Below are positions 1 to 41,357 of a DNA stretch of 64,000 nt, in pieces. The stretch is from a phage. Under the pieces are notes generated by a model. The model ran no database searches, was not told where the DNA came from, and saw only the letters and a program-made list of their open reading frames with translations. The stretch is from the sequence record NC_100372.1; one strand, written 5' to 3'. Made by a program: the position numbers and the translations under genes. How positions within the stretch are numbered: position 1 is the stretch's first letter; each line of letters starts with the position of its first letter.

Positions 1-159
1 GCCAATGAAGGGCCGACACTACCCATAATAAGTAATAAATTTAAAACATGGTACTTAGGATCTAGTATATTCTACATAAGTTAAGTATATGTACTTTAGT
101 ACCATAAGTACTAGATCTTTTATTTTTTATTATTTAGTTATTTTAGTTATATTCTTTAT

Positions 160-243
160 GTGTCCGTATCACGGACAGTTAGTGTCCGTATTACGGGCAA
201 ATGTGTCCGCGTGACGGACAGTAGTGTCCGTATCACGGACAGT
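160..243. repeat. Four tandem ~21 bp repeats, each built on the palindrome GTCCGT-N3-ACGGAC, at about 21-bp spacing (starts 160, 182, 203, 224); copies 1 and 4 identical
   Basis: Read directly: gtgtccgtatcacggacagt at 160 and 224, variants gtccgtattacgggc (184-198) and gtccgcgtgacggac (205-219). AT-rich tract 121-159 immediately upstream. Confidence 0.8.
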
Positions 244-316
244 TACTAACCTCTGTTCCATAGTGAACATAAAACATACAAATCCTTATAGTACAGATGT
301 TTAAGTTTTTACTGGT

Positions 317-667
317 CTAACCAGTTGTTGACATTCGAATAACTTCTTCTGGTGGCAAAACTTTGGAAAATGTGCATCTTTTACCTCTCCCTTGTGTGGA
401 TATTTCAACCACTCCTGCACATTCTAAAGTTTTAACGCACGCTGCTGCTTTTGTTTTCTTTATCCCAACATCTGCTGCAATTTTCCTTGTGCTGGGTGTG
501 AAGCGTAAATTTTCTCCAAGCTTATACCAGTTGTGCAGGTAGCAGTATACGATCTTGTCATATAAGTCAAGAACAACAACCTCCCCAGTTGTGTCATTCA
601 AAACTTTTGACATAGACAGTATTTCAAGGGGGACTTTAAGATATAGCAGCTTATCCCCATCTTTCAT
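317..667 (-). CDS. Small putative winged-helix DNA-binding protein
   Basis: 116-aa ORF; helix-turn-helix-like segment STRKIAADVGIKKTKAAACVKTLE; last gene of the minus-strand operon; true start may be internal. Confidence 0.4.
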   Translation of the reverse strand: MKDGDKLLYLKVPLEILSMSKVLNDTTGEVVVLDLYDKIVYCYLHNWYKLGENLRFTPSTRKIAADVGIKKTKAAACVKTLECAGVVEISTQGRGKRCTFSKVLPPEEVIRMSTTG

Positions 668-714
668 ATCTCCTGATTCTCCTTGTGTGGCAATTTTCTT
701 TAAAATAGCAGGGA

Positions 715-1269
715 TTACTCCCCGCTGTCAATAGCAAGACTCATTGCAATACGGTATGCCTCTTCTAATGGTAAGAGTCTCCCCCACACATCCCAACCGA
801 CATCAAACTGCCTGCCAAACAACTGCTGTGTGGTTCCGTGAGCATGACCGAACAGTTGGACTGATCCGTGAGGCTTTCTGTTCCACTTTGCAAACTGGTA
901 ATGGCTCATACAGATCAAATTCTTGTTGTGGCGAAGCTCGTAATAATCTACAACCTCATGACCGAACTCTTTCATAATTCTGACAGTCGTCCTTGTGTCA
1001 TGGTTACCACGAACAAGAATAATATGTCCGTTCAACATATTTAGAACATCTGGAAGCAATTTGTTGATATTCTTATCATTAGTGCACGCAATATCCCCCA
1101 AGTGAAACACAGTGTCTGCAGGTGACACAACAGAGTTCCACTTGGTGATGATTCCCGCATTCATACTGTCAAGATTGTGATCATACTGAGATCTGTGTTT
1201 TTGACATGAGTCGAACTCCATTACCCGCTGGTGGAGAAAGTGTGTGTCGCTTGTTACAAAGTATTTCAT
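715..1269 (-). CDS. Calcineurin-like metallophosphoesterase
   Basis: Motifs in order DTHF (DxH), GDIACTND (GDxxD), GNHD, GHAH. Start trimmed to the Met of MKYFVTSDTHF because the longest ORF overlaps the upstream gene. Confidence 0.7.
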   Translation of the reverse strand: MKYFVTSDTHFLHQRVMEFDSCQKHRSQYDHNLDSMNAGIITKWNSVVSPADTVFHLGDIACTNDKNINKLLPDVLNMLNGHIILVRGNHDTRTTVRIMKEFGHEVVDYYELRHNKNLICMSHYQFAKWNRKPHGSVQLFGHAHGTTQQLFGRQFDVGWDVWGRLLPLEEAYRIAMSLAIDSGE

Positions 1270-1276
1270 ACATTCC

Positions 1277-1687
1277 TCATTTAAGTTTAATGCAGTTTTT
1301 AAGCTGGCGTTCCATACGATCCACAACCCTGTCTGGAACATCATGAATGCTTTTATTACCATGGCGGTTTTCAACCACGATCACGGTATAACTATATCCA
1401 TGACTGATCGCCATGTCAATATATTCTTGCACATATTTTTCTTTTGTAAACGTATTACTTACCACGATACGGTCGTAGCCCATACGCATCATATCTTCTA
1501 CGTTATCTTTGCACCATTTTGCTGCAAGTGTTACTTTACTTGCATCCCAATTGTAATTGCCGTCATCGTCGTACCAGAACATATCGTTCTCAAAATGTGG
1601 ATACAGACCTTCTAAAGATAGCGCATTTGCCAGTGTTGATTTGCCAGACCCTGGTAGACCACGCACGATATATAGCATTTTAGACAT
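1277..1687 (-). CDS. P-loop kinase, polynucleotide 5'-kinase-like
   Basis: Walker A GLPGSGKST at the N-terminus, plus VVSNTFTKEK and VPDRVVDRM segments resembling the T4 Pnk kinase domain as recalled. Start taken at MSKMLYIVRG with a GGAGAG RBS. Confidence 0.55.
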   Translation of the reverse strand: MSKMLYIVRGLPGSGKSTLANALSLEGLYPHFENDMFWYDDDGNYNWDASKVTLAAKWCKDNVEDMMRMGYDRIVVSNTFTKEKYVQEYIDMAISHGYSYTVIVVENRHGNKSIHDVPDRVVDRMERQLKNCIKLK

Positions 1688-1708
1688 AGTAACTCTCCGT
1701 TTTAATTT

Positions 1709-1777
1709 TAATGATAGTATACCTAACTGTTTTGTTAATTTCAAGTGTTGACACCAAGTTATTTGTGTGGCAGGATA
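1709..1777. promoter_or_regulatory. Divergent promoter region between the minus operon and the plus block
   Basis: Minus strand: TTGAAA, 17-nt spacer, TATACT (plus coordinates 1716-1743). Plus strand: TTGACA at 1748-1753 with a weak -10. Confidence 0.35.
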
Positions 1778-1787
1778 AAGGGACAAA

Positions 1788-2723
1788 ATGACAAATGAGG
1801 AATGTATAATGAAGTATTTTAATGCAGACAACCTAGTTGACAAAGGTCTTGTAACCAGCAGATATTACCCGGATCTTGGGTTAAAGATCTATAAATATGC
1901 CAGAAAAGTATTCTACAACAATTTATGGCATTTGTCTCCTCGTTTGCTGGAGTGCCGAGGCATTGTTGTCGGTAATGAAGGAAATGTTGTGGCATGGCCC
2001 TTCACAAAAGTGTTTAACTTGGGAGAAAATTCCACCAACCTGCCTGACAATAAACTTGTGACGGCGGTAGAGAAAAAGAACGGATTCCTTGGTGTGGTAT
2101 CATCTCATAAAGGTGAACTATTGTTCTCAACAACCGGGTCTCTTGATTCTCCATATTGTAACCTCGCAAAGGAAACAATCCAGGAGCAATGTGGTAATTT
2201 AGATCTTATCAAGAGGGTTATGGGCCATGAAAACATGACATTCATGTTTGAAATTTGTCACCCTTCAGATCCGCATATTGTTCAGGAAGATCATGGCGCA
2301 TATTTGATAGGTTGCAGATATAATGATTCTGGAATAATGCTACCAGAAGCAGCTTTAGATGGGATTGCCAAATACCTTGGTGCAAAACGTCCTCACACTG
2401 TGCGTGAAATTCCGTTCAGCTATGCAAAAGAATTAGCTGCAGAAACAAGAGGTGAAGGGTATATGATTCGTAAGCCTTACTACCCTTATGATCTGCAGCT
2501 GAAGATCAAGTCTCCATACTATTTGGCACGGAAGGCCGTAATGAGGGGTAAAGCTTGGAAGATTTGGGATGATGATATCTTTAAACGTGTTGACGAAGAG
2601 TTTTACGGCATGGTAAACTTCATTCGTAGAAACTACACAGAAGATGTGTGGAATTGCCTCCTGGAGCAGGAACGACGTGAGATACTTGACTGCTATTTCC
2701 ACAACGAGGACTATATGCAATGA
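1788..2723 (+). CDS. ATP-dependent nucleic acid ligase (covalent nucleotidyltransferase), RNA ligase-like
   Basis: Motif I-like EKKNGF (Kx[DN]G), motif IV-like GEGYMIRKP, motif V-like LKIKSPYY; 311 aa; divergent from the kinase/phosphoesterase pair. Confidence 0.5.
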   Translation: MTNEECIMKYFNADNLVDKGLVTSRYYPDLGLKIYKYARKVFYNNLWHLSPRLLECRGIVVGNEGNVVAWPFTKVFNLGENSTNLPDNKLVTAVEKKNGFLGVVSSHKGELLFSTTGSLDSPYCNLAKETIQEQCGNLDLIKRVMGHENMTFMFEICHPSDPHIVQEDHGAYLIGCRYNDSGIMLPEAALDGIAKYLGAKRPHTVREIPFSYAKELAAETRGEGYMIRKPYYPYDLQLKIKSPYYLARKAVMRGKAWKIWDDDIFKRVDEEFYGMVNFIRRNYTEDVWNCLLEQERREILDCYFHNEDYMQ

Positions 2724-3070
2724 AGAAGTTGATTGTGTGGCTGGATGACTTGAGAGATCCGTCAAATTATGGGCTCCCAGATGCTCTTTGGCTAAAGAAT
2801 TCCTCTGAGTTTATGGATTTTATTAACGATAAGGGAAAGCTCTACAGGCGCGTTTCTGAGTGGCACATGGACAACGACCTTGGAGAGGTATTTGAAGGGT
2901 ACGATTGCCTATCTATGCTGGAGGAAAAATTTGTATTTGGTAAGCCTCCTGTAGTTGACAACGTGAAGATTTTCGTGCATACTTCTAACCCATCAGCTGC
3001 TCGTAAATTCATGCTTGCTGCTGACTCGTTTAAAAAGTTTGGAATAGAGATTAAACAAAACATCTACTGA
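2720..3070 (+). CDS. Hypothetical protein
   Basis: 116-aa ORF overlapping the upstream stop (ATGA-type coupling), same strand as neighbours. Confidence 0.4.
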   Translation: MKKLIVWLDDLRDPSNYGLPDALWLKNSSEFMDFINDKGKLYRRVSEWHMDNDLGEVFEGYDCLSMLEEKFVFGKPPVVDNVKIFVHTSNPSAARKFMLAADSFKKFGIEIKQNIY

Positions 3071-32252: not shown

Positions 32253-32651
32253 GTGAAAAATAAACTGTTCAAAGTTACAATGAAAATTCGCGGAGCTTGG
32301 AGCGTAAAGCAAGGGCGTATCCCCGAATTTGAGAAAGACTTCTACGTAGTCTCCACCTCGGAGGAGGCTGCATGCTGGCAGGCTGGCTATGCCTATGCAA
32401 GAACCTGGTACGAAGGATACCAGACTGGAGGCTATGACGGAGAAATTGTCAGTAAGGGTGTGGAAGAAATTAATGTGTTGACAAGTGAAAAAGTTTTTGT
32501 TATAGTGCATCCAGATTCCAGAGTGAAGCATTACTGGAATGCCAGAACAAAAACCTGGACACCGTTTGCAGATTCTGCTACACCACTTTTAAACCAGAAA
32601 GCTCTTGACTCTGCCCCAAGCTATGGGGTTGTTGAAGAAAAGATAAGCTGA
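32253..32651 (+). CDS. Hypothetical protein, paralog family B
   Basis: Paralogous to 34458-34853 (VHPDSRVKHYWNARTKTWTP versus MRHPHSNIAYYWDVLNNEWTP). Confidence 0.45.
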   Translation: MKNKLFKVTMKIRGAWSVKQGRIPEFEKDFYVVSTSEEAACWQAGYAYARTWYEGYQTGGYDGEIVSKGVEEINVLTSEKVFVIVHPDSRVKHYWNARTKTWTPFADSATPLLNQKALDSAPSYGVVEEKIS

Positions 32652-32668
32652 AATAGTGGGGTGCTTAC

Positions 32669-32959
32669 ATGATGGATTTAGTTTTGGACGCTGATAACAC
32701 CGGATCGTTTAAAAAAGATGGTGTAATAAGCATGGACCAATCCTGCGATGTCAAGATTGACTCAAAATGGACCTACAAGTTTGACGGTGAGATCTTCGCA
32801 AATGATGAGAAGGTCGTGGATGCTGTAGCCATTTTAAACGCTTTAGGGTATGACCCTGTGAACTCATTGATCAAGGATCCTGTTGAGTTTGCAGAGTATG
32901 TTCGTAAAATGGCAGATCTTGCAGTAGATATTTTAAAAACTATCGACAACAAGTTGTAA
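32669..32959 (+). CDS. Hypothetical protein
   Basis: 96-aa ORF. Confidence 0.4.
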   Translation: MMDLVLDADNTGSFKKDGVISMDQSCDVKIDSKWTYKFDGEIFANDEKVVDAVAILNALGYDPVNSLIKDPVEFAEYVRKMADLAVDILKTIDNKL

Positions 32960-33040
32960 AAACTGTTGACACAACGCTTCAGATTTAGTATCATTGTTTT
33001 CAAAGAGGGGTTGGTCCCTCTTCTTTAAAAGGAACACATT

Positions 33041-33358
33041 ATGCAAATTGAAATCACTGGCAACGTAGAGATCACTGAAGGTATGGTGTCTTTCATTTCC
33101 AACAAAATGTCCAAGCTGGAGCGTTTGCACCCCTCTGCCAACTATGCACGTGTGAGTGTAAAAGTTGAAAATGATCACCAGGAAGTTATGGCTTTCATTT
33201 TTGACACTTCTGGAAAAGAAGTTATCGCCAAAGCTAAAGGTAGTGATGCTTACGAGGCAACTGACCGTATGGTAGATGTTGCAGCACGCCAGTTGGCTAA
33301 GTGTGGTGGAAAGAAAGGTAAGGGAAAAGGCAAAGTAAAGATTGACTTTTTAGATTAA
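33041..33358 (+). CDS. hpf: Ribosome hibernation promoting factor / RaiA-family homolog
   Basis: MQIEITGNVEITEG...KLE...VSVKVE...AKGSDAYEATDRMVDVAARQLAK aligns with recalled E. coli HPF (MQLNITGNNVEITEA...KLEQ...KVE...AEGQDMYAAIDGLIDKLARQLTK); Lys/Gly-rich C-terminal tail. Confidence 0.7.
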   Translation: MQIEITGNVEITEGMVSFISNKMSKLERLHPSANYARVSVKVENDHQEVMAFIFDTSGKEVIAKAKGSDAYEATDRMVDVAARQLAKCGGKKGKGKGKVKIDFLD

Positions 33359-36510: not shown

Positions 36511-36665
36511 TAGTATAGTGACTAACAAGAGGTGAGGAATGACTGATTTTACTGAAGCTTTAATGATGGCCTTATCTGTTTTAGCGCTATCGGTGTGTTT
36601 TGGAGCGTTATTCACATCTCTGGTTAGAGTTTTACATACCATATTATCACCCAAGGAGCACAGTA

Positions 36666-36916
36666 ATGACGAAGATTGACTTAAATGCTGGCGACCATTT
36701 GTTGTCAAATGCATCGGGGATTATCTTGGATTCACAATCGGCAACACTTACGAGGCGGTAGTGGCGAAGGTTTATCATGATAAAGTCCTCAGCCTTGTGT
36801 TTGACTGTGATGATGACGGAGATGACCGTTACGTCTGTGAGGTGCTGGCACGTGACGATAGTGAAGACCAGAAATTCCTGGTTATTGAACTGAACGGTAT
36901 TTTTGTAGAACGTTAA
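36666..36916 (+). pseudogene. Possible frameshifted or non-ATG-initiated member of the small acidic protein family
   Basis: ATG at 36666 opens a 31-codon frame (MTKIDLNAGD...); a family-like sequence (...VYHDKVLSLVFDCDDDGDDRYVCEVLARDDSEDQKFLVIELNGIFVER) continues in a different frame to the stop at 36914-36916 with no in-frame ATG. Confidence 0.25.
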
Positions 36917-38368: not shown

Positions 38369-38554
38369 ATGACCAACACACATGCATCTACAGAAACATC
38401 TGAAGGAGTGACAGAGGAAAACTTCAATTCTGAGGATTCTCTATCTCCGTCCCAGGTGGACCCTGAGGCTGATGACCTAACGTGGGAGGATATCATAGCC
38501 ATCTGGTTCTCTATTATGCCTGAGCACGAAGAGTTCAGAGGTGGGAGACTATGA
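38369..38554 (+). CDS. Hypothetical small acidic protein
   Basis: 61-aa ORF. Confidence 0.35.
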   Translation: MTNTHASTETSEGVTEENFNSEDSLSPSQVDPEADDLTWEDIIAIWFSIMPEHEEFRGGRL

Positions 38555-38674
38555 AGCACCGAGCCCACATAAGTTTATCATGCTAAAGCATGGCCTGAAG
38601 GGGCAAACGTGCATAATTCCATCGTATTGGAACGTATAAACCCCGTTCACACTCTCATTTCCAGAGGAGATTTC

Positions 38675-38890
38675 ATGAAAATAGAAATATTTGGTGGGGC
38701 TGACAACACTCGTGGCCTGATTTACCTTGAATTCGATGAATCTTACCTGCCAGAGGTGTTAAATATAGATGCTGTTGCGGAAGCCCTTGATGTAGACCCT
38801 AAAGATCTCTACTCCCGTGCTGAGATTGATGGTTGGGAAGAGACTCTGAACATTGATTTCAGTGAAGTAGTAGATGAACCTTTGGACTGA
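38675..38890 (+). CDS. Hypothetical small acidic protein (MKIEIFGG... N-terminus)
   Basis: Start at MKIEIFGGADNTRGL with a GAGGAG RBS; last gene of the plus-strand block. Confidence 0.45.
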   Translation: MKIEIFGGADNTRGLIYLEFDESYLPEVLNIDAVAEALDVDPKDLYSRAEIDGWEETLNIDFSEVVDEPLD

Positions 38891-40355
38891 CACACAAGTC
38901 TGCTTTGCAGGTTTAGCTGCTCAGCTAAGGTTCTGGAGTCACCTATAACATCTTCCAACTAAATTTCCTACCAACACAGTTACTTACCCACCACACATGA
39001 CTGTTTGCTTGTTTAGTGAGCAGTCATCCCTTGACATTCTTGCCTATCTTGATAAAATTAAGTTCTTCTCTTTTCTTTTACCGAGTAATTCGGGTTTTCT
39101 GTTCTCTTCGGTTTGAAGGGGTATGGAGATACACCTGAGTGAACAGGGTGAACAACCGAACCTTTAGCTATGGCATTAGCATGGCGAAGCGGACGGGTGA
39201 CGAAAGAGGGGCCGGAGGACACCAGTCACTGCCATATAGTATATGGGTGATAACCTGAAGAGTCTGAATAAGTGTTTAAGTACCAGTCAGAGGAAAAGGT
39301 GAATGGTAGCCGAAGGGGGAGGGGGGTTTCTTATATCTTTAATTTGTATACTTTATATACACTTGTAAACCAATTCAATTAGGATCTGTTTACCACACAA
39401 AGTGGATGGAGACAAATATCACCTATTAAACTTGAATTATTTATAGAAAATACCACAACACCGCTTAAGTCTTTGATTTTACACACAAATCTTACAAATA
39501 TCCTACCTCCATATTTAACATACTTGTAACATATTCCATATCCTACCTGCCTGATCAATTTACTCCCACCACATTCCCACATTTTCCCTGTCTGTACTAC
39601 CCCACCCCCGCCGGGAGTCCCGTCATATCTGGCTTTCCAGCAAATATCACACCCACAAATATCATCACCTGAAGAGGGTTTCATCCCATAATACCTGCCT
39701 TACCTGAAGAGCGCTTCATACACCACCTAAATTTTTTAATTGACCCCTCCCCGCCGCCGGAGAGGTTGGCTTTTCCCACACAGGCCTGAAGAGTCAGCCA
39801 GAAATATCTGAACAGGTCCAGTTATGCCCCGATTTTGTGCTTGTCCTACAGGAGTGCTGCCCTGTCAGGAGCCGGTAGCGACTGGAGTGCTGCCAGGCGG
39901 ACGGAATGGGAATACTTCTCATTTTTATAATAATTCTCAAATATCGAGGCAGTGAGGCAAATTAATAGGCCAGGCCGTTCACACAGTGGCACAACATTTG
40001 CAATCTATCTTGTGGGAGTGAATGAGAATACCTATCATTGTGAGAATGGTTATCATTACGGGCAATTTAACATAATACCTATTATGCGCACCACTGGCGA
40101 TACATACAGGGATTGATAACATGGGTTACTGTTTACGCACATAACAATTATATTTATTACTATTTGTGTGGGATATAGTTAGCAACCAATAGATTAGATA
40201 TTGACCTGCAGACTTCTGACCGTCCAGACGTCTAAACGCCCACACAACAAGGATTATACATACATTCCTGAATGTAAACAGGGCCGCAAAAAATGCTACC
40301 ATACCAGTTTGTAAATTTTTCATGCAGCACTTGACAAAGAGGAGAAAAACTTGTC

Positions 40356-40417
40356 TGACACAATGTGACAAAATTGCCACTTTTGACACTTTTACCTTTG
40401 ACACAATATGACACAAT
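40356..40417. repeat. Cluster of five TGACA(C/A)(A/T)(A/T)T repeats
   Basis: tgacacaat 40356, tgacaaaat 40366, tgacacttt 40384, tgacacaat 40399 and 40409; inside the ORF-free region. Confidence 0.6.
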
Positions 40418-40443
40418 AACGGCTGTTACTATTCCATATCTCA

Positions 40444-40503
40444 CTGTTTACGTATAGACTGTTTACGCCTGAATAGTTTACGCCCAAACTGTTTACACAG
40501 AGA
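40444..40503. repeat. Four tandem 15-bp repeats with core TGTTTACRC
   Basis: ctgtttacg 40444, ctgtttacg 40459, tagtttacg 40474, ctgtttaca 40489 (exact 15-bp period); extra copies at 40129, 40900 and 40943. Confidence 0.8.
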
Positions 40504-40510
40504 TGATAAG

Positions 40511-40750
40511 CCATGACATTCGTTTGCATGAAAACAATTAACAAGTTAATAATATATGACATAATATAAAAGCAGGGCAACTATTAGAAGATCTATAGTT
40601 GCCTTGCTTGTTATGTCATGATTAACTAAATACAAGGCAACTATGATCTGAATAATAGATTGCAGAAAAACTATCACGGGGGTGATTGTTACTGCTTTTA
40701 TATTATGTCGCGACTCCGTCGCGCCATGCCATTCGTTTGCATAGTTGCCT
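40511..40750. repeat. Nested dyad-symmetric element
   Basis: Perfect 18-bp inverted repeat gacataatataaaagcag (40558-40575) / ctgcttttatattatgtc (40692-40709); inner palindrome ggcaactat-N10-atagttgcc (40576-40603); GGCAACTAT again at 40636 and inverted at 40741; flanking direct repeat cattcgtttgcat (40517 and 40731); palindrome cgcgac-tcc-gtcgcg (40709-40723). Confidence 0.8.
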
Positions 40751-41357
40751 TATTGTTACAGGTAAAACAATTACATTATTAATTATTTCTTATCTTTCTC
40801 TTAGTCATCTAATGATTCCAGTCAGTATAGTAATGTACAGTAAACATTAGACGACTAAAGATTTCTCTGTGTATAATAACTTATCGTGACAATTTCGAAC
40901 TGTTTACGAAAAATGTTGACACCTGAGCTGATTTATGTTATGCAGTTTACACGAATAATTATTTTATGCAGGTATTGACTATTCCGTTATTCTGTGGTTG
41001 GAATAAATACTTTGCAGACTATAGAATGGCGTGCGTACGTGAATTCTGAGATCTGGCGGCTATAGTTATACTCGATTTTTCGCGTAGAACACGCTTTCGA
41101 TGCTGTGTAAGTGTATGACTTATAAAGATTTTTAGTTGTTGACAAGATATTGGAGATGTGCATCAGGTTAAAATTTGTGCAATAGCGGCATTACGTGCAC
41201 TTTTGGGAGAGAAAACGGGTAAAAATGGCCCTGCTACCACACAATGAAAGATTATGCAATGGTTATTTTCCATGTATATTTGTACAGTATGTGGGATTGA
41301 TGGCTAGTCAATTATTCCACTTGCCAGGTAGGGCCGTTTATGGTAGGAGAAGAGCAG

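Follow-up and report, generated by a model that had tools for sequence, protein, structure and literature searches.

The left end of a 64,000-nt stretch of phage DNA (sequence record NC_100372.1; the whole stretch is called the window below) carries, in an intergenic region, four tandem dyad-symmetric repeats that abut a tract very rich in A+T, close to the gene for a 116-aa winged-helix protein. We propose that this locus is the replication origin, or one origin, of an rV5-like phage, organized on the iteron-plus-unwinding-element plan. The probability of this reading may be put at roughly 0.58, and binding of the array by the 116-aa protein is considered very probable. An earlier note, made from the sequence alone, had hesitated between operators for a regulator, a replication site and a packaging site. 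A replication site is now clearly favoured over the two others because the repeat motif is unique, the least stable DNA is adjacent to it, the GC-skew minimum is within about 1 kb and the protein has a RepA-type fold. The locus combines the traits of an iteron origin: at least three tandem repeats in helical register, an adjacent A+T-rich element and an adjoining candidate initiator gene.

Bases 1-3000 of the window match 119 phage records at 90-99% identity, all of them rV5-like myoviruses (Vequintavirus). The closest record is Escherichia phage S127 BCL3 (99.1% identity, with the match starting at its position 36,634). Its complete genome (135,530 bp, 99% identical) was used for the whole-genome tests of motif occurrence, A+T content, duplex stability and skew. 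All genes between the left edge of the window and position ~1,780 are on the minus strand. Following transcription, the winged-helix gene is succeeded by 50 conserved nt, ~25 hypervariable nt, the repeat array, the 40-bp A+T tract, a 70-bp block of interleaved inverted repeats, a GC-rich conserved block of ~330 nt and a 192-aa gene (gp073). Small genes, tRNAs, spanin-like genes and the large terminase are found beyond. In the relatives, this intergenic region measures about 660 bp, of which the window keeps the right-hand 316 bp; the element is indeed cut by the window edge, as the earlier note had stated.

The array occupies positions 160-243. It consists of four 17-bp dyads TGTCCG-N5-CGGACA, the proposed iterons, with cores at 161-177, 183-199, 204-220 and 225-241. 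On the plus strand, its units begin at 160, 182, 203 and 224, with a spacing of 22, 21 and 21 bp, that is two helical turns, and they read in order GTGTCCGTATCACGGACAG, GTGTCCGTATTACGGGCAA, GTGTCCGCGTGACGGACAG and again GTGTCCGTATCACGGACAG. Each unit is a direct repeat with inverted sub-repeats, the defining trait of RepA_N iterons. When up to two mismatches are allowed, GTCCGT-N3-ACGGAC has seven matches in the window for 1.08 expected, a number reached in 0 of 100 shuffles, and the four matches with 0-1 mismatch are the array. In the complete S127 BCL3 genome, TGTCCG-N5-CGGACA with at most two mismatches occurs at the four sites of the array only (36,794-36,877). In rV5, window positions 100-250 correspond to ~65.1-65.3 kb. 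Hence the four palindromic repeats first described at 160-243 are confirmed in position, in significance and in uniqueness. An exact-pattern scan of IMG/VR with TGTCCGT-N3-ACGGACA returned about 100 loci, nearly all of them single chance palindromes, and no rV5-like array, and this result was uninformative. A search of 5,426 complete E. coli genomes for a host or satellite copy of the origin gave no match to window positions 40-260.

Conservation was followed in the corresponding region of 14 GenBank relatives and 8 metagenomic contigs, including a lineage whose protein is 84-89% identical. The array is present in all of them, with 2, 3, 4 or 6 units and a spacing that is always 21-22 bp. Variation across units and relatives spares almost entirely the outer seven bases of each half, CTGYCCG and CGGACAC, and affects the central 5 nt, which differ among units and phages (TGATA, TCACG, TAATA, CCACG, TGAGA, CAATA, CTACG). 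Because the half-sites are fixed, the centres free and the two-turn phasing strict, such a pattern would be that expected of a site for a dimeric protein on double-stranded DNA, unlike an RNA hairpin. Where two units of the rV5-type array meet, an everted arrangement, GGACA-N4/5-TGTCC, is also present. A coding role of the array had been considered from the open reading frames 89-214 (plus strand) and 169-270 (minus strand) and from a 47-aa coding sequence in one GenBank record. It was rejected on three grounds: a copy number ranging from 2 to 6, a 22-bp spacing that shifts the frame, and a hypervariable flank. In addition, three metagenomic contigs (L119, L125 and L126) and the GenBank record MG065672.1 end within the array or at its edge. 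The repeat breaks short-read assemblies, and contig ends at this place should therefore not be read as genome termini.

The A+T-rich tract (118-159), which is the proposed DNA-unwinding element, abuts the array and contains 92.5% A+T over 118-157. It is the top-ranked A+T stretch of the whole 135.5-kb genome in windows of 30 to 150 bp. Nearest-neighbour energies also designate it as the least stable duplex genome-wide at window sizes of 40, 60 and 100 bp. The tract noticed at first inspection as merely AT-rich is therefore stronger than described. On its other side lies the inverted-repeat block (48-117), with GATC at 59 and 114 and four AGTAC/GGTAC motifs. In a first pair (a, a'), gatctagta at 59-67 is complementary to tactagatc at 109-117 over 9 of 9 positions, with one GATC per arm. 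In a second pair (b, b'), atggtact at 48-55 matches agtaccat at 98-105. Both pairs had been recognized in the earlier note; agtaccat had however been placed at 103-110. The arms alternate in the order b, a, b', a', so that the pairs are interleaved rather than nested or flanking. It is possible that the block serves as a site for an accessory factor, or as an extrudable structure beside the unwinding element. The A+T tract and the inverted-repeat block are nearly 100% identical across the genus, and for the inverted-repeat block this includes the divergent Aya lineage. No DnaA box occurs within 1.5 kb of the locus.

The winged-helix gene, whose product is the proposed origin-binding protein, spans 317-667. 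The reading frame initially noted there is real and encodes 116 aa. Its location on the minus strand had been missed, so that the array in fact lies downstream of the gene, 74 nt after the stop codon. In Pfam, the protein gives a borderline match to DUF6945 (PF22182; 28.7 bits for a cut-off of 28.0) and a sub-threshold match to HTH_36 (21.9 for 25). PHROG 12838, 'replication initiation protein', matches it at 2.6e-78. GenBank records name the gene 'putative transcriptional regulator', whereas RefSeq uses the same label as PHROG. The family is rare, with 14 matches at E<=0.001 in a profile search of 1.84 billion representative proteins. The best PDB sequence match is 4RO3, with E=3e-6 for a narrow profile and 4.6e-15 for a 23-member family profile, at ~27% identity. 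This structure is the N-terminal domain of RepA from the Vibrio cholerae phage satellite PLE (Barth et al. 2020, PMC7145576; PMC8263062). AlphaFold modelling from five close sequences was unusable (predicted local distance difference test, pLDDT, of 49), while the alignment of 23 family sequences gave a model with a pLDDT of 82.7. When this fold was compared with the PDB using Foldseek, 4ro3 came first, followed by the N-terminal domains of staphylococcal RepA_N initiators (4pql, 5kbj, 4pt7), one of the matched structures being a complex with iteron DNA. According to the model, the protein would thus possess an N-terminal winged-helix domain of the RepA_N/DnaD-N fold, and the entire 116-aa chain, beyond its helix-turn-helix, is predicted to be a RepA-type origin-binding domain. 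The terms 'iteron-like' and 'winged-helix' used at the outset are well supported by this homology to the iteron-binding N-terminal domain of a characterised initiator.

Considering these properties, the following mechanism may be envisaged. The 116-aa protein would be an early product, expressed from a sigma70-type promoter that has an extended -10 element (TTGACA-18-TG-n-TATTTT) and is found upstream of its gene at 702-731 on the minus strand (L001 6731-6702). This promoter corresponds to the rV5 annotation 'Sigma70-type promoter; P76', and its sequence implies early expression by the host RNA polymerase. As a RepA-type winged-helix domain whose characterised relatives are dimeric, the protein would bind as one dimer per TGTCCG-N5-CGGACA dyad. 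The centres of the half-sites are 11 bp apart, and the two subunits would therefore contact consecutive major grooves on the same side of the helix. Because the dyads repeat every 21-22 bp, all four dimers would sit on the same face and build a bent nucleoprotein array. The stress imposed by this array would open the abutting 40-bp tract, and the phage's own helicase-primase and polymerase would then load at the opened tract.

Homologues outside the genus give a further view of this association. Using distant family members as queries, tblastn detects homologues in Pseudomonas phage phiPMW, in Erwinia Henunavirus phages and in Aeromonas phages. In phiPMW, the homologue is ~30% identical to a family member and its gene is preceded by three GGACA-AAA-TGTCC dyads, that is the rV5-type pentamer half-site in the everted arrangement. 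These three dyads are unique within the first 50 kb of phiPMW and lie ~350 bp from a local GC-skew minimum. On the basis of GC skew, the phiPMW authors had proposed an origin at ~40 kb, and the dyads are near that place. In Aeromonas-type contigs, TGTCC half-sites and long A+T repeats are found upstream of the gene. Longer homologues (P0010, P0016, P0017, P0018 and that of Aeromonas phage 4L372XY, L129 2477-2968) carry acidic C-terminal tips, reading …CDEAPF, …SDGENF, …EENPPF, …DPDAPF and …DQDEIPF, whereas the rV5-type protein is without such a tail. These tips resemble the C-terminal tip of the single-stranded DNA-binding protein, a likeness that we take as a lead only; in that protein, the tip recruits replication proteins. 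Finally, one metagenomic protein (P0012, 228 aa) joins a GIY-YIG nuclease to a DUF6945 RepA-type domain, the same pairing as in the origin-directed nuclease Odn of phage ICP1.

Several observations weigh against an origin at this locus. Firstly, replication in large lytic phages may start from several origins or depend on recombination. Secondly, the support drawn from GC skew is weak. The global minimum of the cumulative skew lies at 37.5 kb of S127 BCL3, ~1 kb or less from the array. However, the direction of transcription switches at 38.3-38.4 kb, ~1.5 kb from the array, and when the authors of the rV5 genome paper sought an origin by GC and AT skew, every change of skew coincided with a switch in transcription. 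The skew minimum is therefore not independent evidence. Thirdly, Pfam RepA_N (PF06970) gives no match to the 116-aa protein at E<=1, and the fold lists also contain proteins of the CodY, Crp and MarR types, though ranked below the initiators; the winged helix is the commonest repressor fold. The protein ends with its winged-helix domain, without a C-terminal domain that would recruit a helicase or a primase, and a bare DNA-binding domain could equally be a pure regulator, which is the chief uncertainty of the proposal. Lastly, in phiPMW the array is within a divergent promoter region, a setting that would suit an operator equally well, and the region upstream of the Erwinia homologue is A+T-rich but without a clear TGTCC array.

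Two flanking regions enter into the discussion of the alternatives. Between the array and the stop codon of the winged-helix gene, the spacer (244-316) comprises a hypervariable part (244-268) and a conserved part (269-316). The ~25-nt hypervariable patch, right beside the array, is scrambled among phages that are otherwise 95-99% identical, and both neighbouring blocks are nearly invariant. A sigma70-like site, TGAACA-17-TATAGT, is found at 264-292 on the plus strand, at a distance of 20 bp from the last repeat; it is directed into the winged-helix gene in antisense orientation. Its version in the Aya lineage, TGGACA-17-TATAAT, is nearer to the consensus. This antisense site may matter, as the Rep protein of plasmid pSK41 is under antisense RNA control. 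At the far end of the intergenic region, the GC-rich block (L001 5660-6030, minus strand) separates the origin-like region from the next gene. The window contains its right end (1-24, minus strand), followed by an A+T-rich linker (25-47). With 55-65% G+C, the block is highly conserved and contains several strong conserved hairpins, as well as an 18-nt indel in some phages. The signal of RNA structure is weak: RNA-fold z-scores are only -2.0 and -2.5, and 2 of the 103 predicted pairs are compensatory, in sequences too similar to decide. The block could be a structured RNA or a 5′ leader. A tRNA/tmRNA scan of the intergenic region returned nothing, and Rfam searches of that region (E<=1) and of the whole window (gathering threshold) gave only a spurious sub-threshold match to rli43.

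In a first alternative, which we hold to be unlikely, the repeats would be an operator or roadblock array. The winged-helix protein would then be a transcription regulator acting at four phased sites downstream of its own early gene. It would either block early read-through into gp073, the tRNAs, the terminase and the late genes, or control a promoter located in the A+T-rich block or at 264-292. Such a role would agree with a fold common to many repressors, with the name given to the gene in GenBank, with the lack of an effector domain and with the conserved sigma70-like site close to the last repeat. In phiPMW, the homologous array, in its divergent promoter region, stands just upstream of an annotated phage-specific promoter. 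It should also be considered that iteron-binding initiators are often repressors too. However, within the 660-bp intergenic region, a scan for sigma70-like sites, with phage-specific promoters outside its scope, detects no such promoter on the transcribed strand. A regulator having a single target in 135 kb, moreover downstream of its own gene, would be unusual. The operator hypothesis also leaves unexplained why the least stable DNA of the genome abuts the array, and the closest relatives of the protein, by sequence and by full-length fold, are initiator domains rather than repressors.

A variant of the origin hypothesis, doubtful but worth stating, is a 'headless' RepA-type initiation. A virulent coliphage would use the origin-binding domain alone, and conserved flanking elements would supply the function lost with the C-terminal domain. 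The GATC-bearing inverted repeats, the ~330-nt GC-rich block and the antisense promoter at 264-292 might be these substitute elements. One imaginable route is an origin transcript or an R-loop, either priming synthesis or regulating initiation. If this were true, the locus would combine an iteron-type origin with a transcription-primed one (T4 oriF/ColE1-like), and a new structured RNA would belong to it.

It is quite improbable that the repeats are a pac site, at which the terminase would start headful packaging, with the winged-helix protein acting as, or helping, the small terminase subunit. Vequintaviruses package their circularly permuted DNA by the headful mechanism. None of the nearby genes can be recognised as a small terminase, the two genes directly upstream of terL (32,496-33,178 in S127 BCL3) matching Rz-like spanin PHROGs, and in rV5-like phages and phiPMW alike, the transcription unit reaching terL begins with the winged-helix gene. 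Furthermore, small terminases are small helix-turn-helix proteins and pac sites can be repeat arrays. Against such a role, the array is ~4.3 kb from terL, with tRNA genes and six other genes in between, and the gene is under an early sigma70 promoter, among early genes of nucleic-acid metabolism. The fold of the protein fits the N-terminal domains of initiators, not small terminase subunits, and an unwinding element would be without obvious role in pac recognition.

Finally, it is very unlikely that the array acts as RNA. In this reading, the minus-strand units would fold as hairpins of 6-7 bp with a 3-nt loop, which would terminate or attenuate transcription, serve in processing or stabilise the 3′ end of the winged-helix mRNA. 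Although every unit is a perfect or near-perfect palindrome within the 3′ untranslated region of the winged-helix gene, and one unit of the Aya lineage has a both-sided change of its innermost pair (T..G to C..G), no U-run follows the last unit, where AUAAAGAAUAUAAC is found, there are zero terminator-like sites in L001 5000-7000, imperfect units carry their G.U wobble on opposite strands, which favours neither of the two, the variation is concentrated centrally while the outer 6-7 nt are fixed, and so strict a phasing (21-22 bp) belongs to double-stranded DNA, not to RNA.

Some neighbouring features and database records deserve mention beside the proposed origin. The gp073 protein was considered both as the lost C-terminal domain and as a small terminase, and both roles were rejected: searches of Pfam, PDB and NCBIfam returned nothing, and BLAST detected no resemblance to members of the winged-helix family. 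A satellite or plasmid copy of the origin was also rejected, the sole 'plasmid' match to the 116-aa protein being a whole rV5-like phage genome. This PLSDB entry, CP057073.1 (137,565 bp; E. coli from cattle faeces), encodes a protein 96.6% identical at 102,789-103,136 and is probably an rV5-like phage genome assembled with its host, as a carrier state or a contamination. Elsewhere in the window, at ~38,500-41,000 (75.1-77.7 kb of S127 BCL3), a stretch of ~2.5 kb is without annotated gene and contains short open reading frames only. It contains the A+T-rich spots that rank second in the genome, as well as the maximum of the cumulative GC skew, where transcription converges; this stretch may be the 'non-coding' box of the rV5 map. 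To the left of the window, ARAGORN calls at L001 3211-3309 a 99-nt tRNA-like gene with a four-base anticodon ('tRNA-???', atcc), which is annotated as tRNA-Lys in phage Gotham. Lastly, 18 UNVERIFIED 'Campylobacter phage' records (MG0656xx) are 95-97% identical to rV5-like coliphages in this region, and their host assignment looks doubtful.

In our searches, no paper was found describing the repeats, the unwinding element or the origin of a Vequintavirus. In the rV5 genome paper, the word 'repeat' is absent and the origin is not placed; a bare 'repeat_region' is marked in some records. The locus therefore offers a precise origin candidate of ~200 bp, together with a candidate origin-binding protein, for rV5-like phages, whose origin had remained unmapped, within a widespread genus used in phage therapy and biocontrol. 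Among the Pfam RepA_N proteins, 723 of 742 belong to Firmicutes or their phages, and PLE RepA has been called the first one characterised in a Gram-negative bacterium (PMC7145576). If our proposal is true, the RepA-type origin-binding module would be used more widely, including in phages of Escherichia, Pseudomonas, Erwinia and Aeromonas, and it could work, or be regulated, without a C-terminal domain. An initiator devoid of this domain would be the unusual feature among the known types of origin. A defined origin would also be useful for phage engineering, for instance with origin plasmids amplified on infection, and the repeat accounts for the assembly breaks mentioned above.

The plan of the locus may be compared with those of several known systems. 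The lambda origin consists of four dyad-symmetric iterons of ~18-19 bp, then an A+T-rich tract of ~40 bp, then a palindrome. The winged-helix N-terminal domain of lambda O binds each iteron as a dimer, its C-terminal domain recruits P-DnaB, and the origin is inside the O gene. Four dyad-symmetric repeats, an A+T tract of ~40 bp, a palindrome and a winged-helix domain are shared with the rV5-type locus. Besides the position of the origin and the C-terminal domain of O, the two systems differ in that the Pfam model Phage_rep_O does not match the 116-aa protein at E<=1, and in that lambda uses the host replisome whereas rV5-like phages encode their own. In ICP1 Odn (PMC8263062), a RepA-type DNA-binding domain also acts as a sequence-specific module; there it is fused to a nuclease and attacks a foreign origin, while the rV5 protein is nuclease-free and has its candidate sites in its own genome.

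The RepA_N plasmid initiators, namely the Rep proteins of pSK41 and pTZ2162, account for Foldseek matches 3 to 6 (4pt7, 4pql, 4pta, 5kbj). Residues 1-120 of pSK41 Rep form the DNA-binding domain, and four Rep boxes come immediately after, within a dispensable linker (PMC5703833). The C-terminal domain binds the DnaG primase, and a functional hybrid initiator with a phage-derived HTH_36 N-terminal domain has been reported (PMC5703833). The parallel with a 116-aa gene followed, 74 nt further on, by four repeats is close, and in both cases the repeats contain inverted sub-repeats. On the other hand, the plasmid origin is inside a long rep open reading frame, whereas here the reading frame stops before the repeats, with no detectable C-terminal domain, and Gram-positive plasmids are compared with a coliphage.

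A last comparison is with PLE. During helper-phage infection, RepA and the non-coding origin region suffice for PLE replication (PMC7145576, PMC8263062). PLE RepA shifts the semi-palindromic 'repeat 3' iterons in electrophoretic mobility shift assays and is required for replication from the PLE origin; its N-terminal domain has the RepA_N fold and is a dimer in the crystal (PMC7145576, PMC8263062). The iterons of RepA_N systems are direct repeats, each with inverted sub-repeats (PMC7145576). Differences should be kept in mind. PLE RepA has a C-terminal domain, whereas the rV5 protein corresponds to the N-terminal domain alone. PLE carries three iterons of ~30 bp, for four 17-bp dyads on a 21-22 bp period here, and PLE is a helper-dependent satellite, whereas the rV5-like phage is a virulent myovirus with its own replisome. 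Nevertheless, both systems place tandem semi-palindromic repeats in non-coding DNA beside the gene, in a phage-associated, Gram-negative setting.

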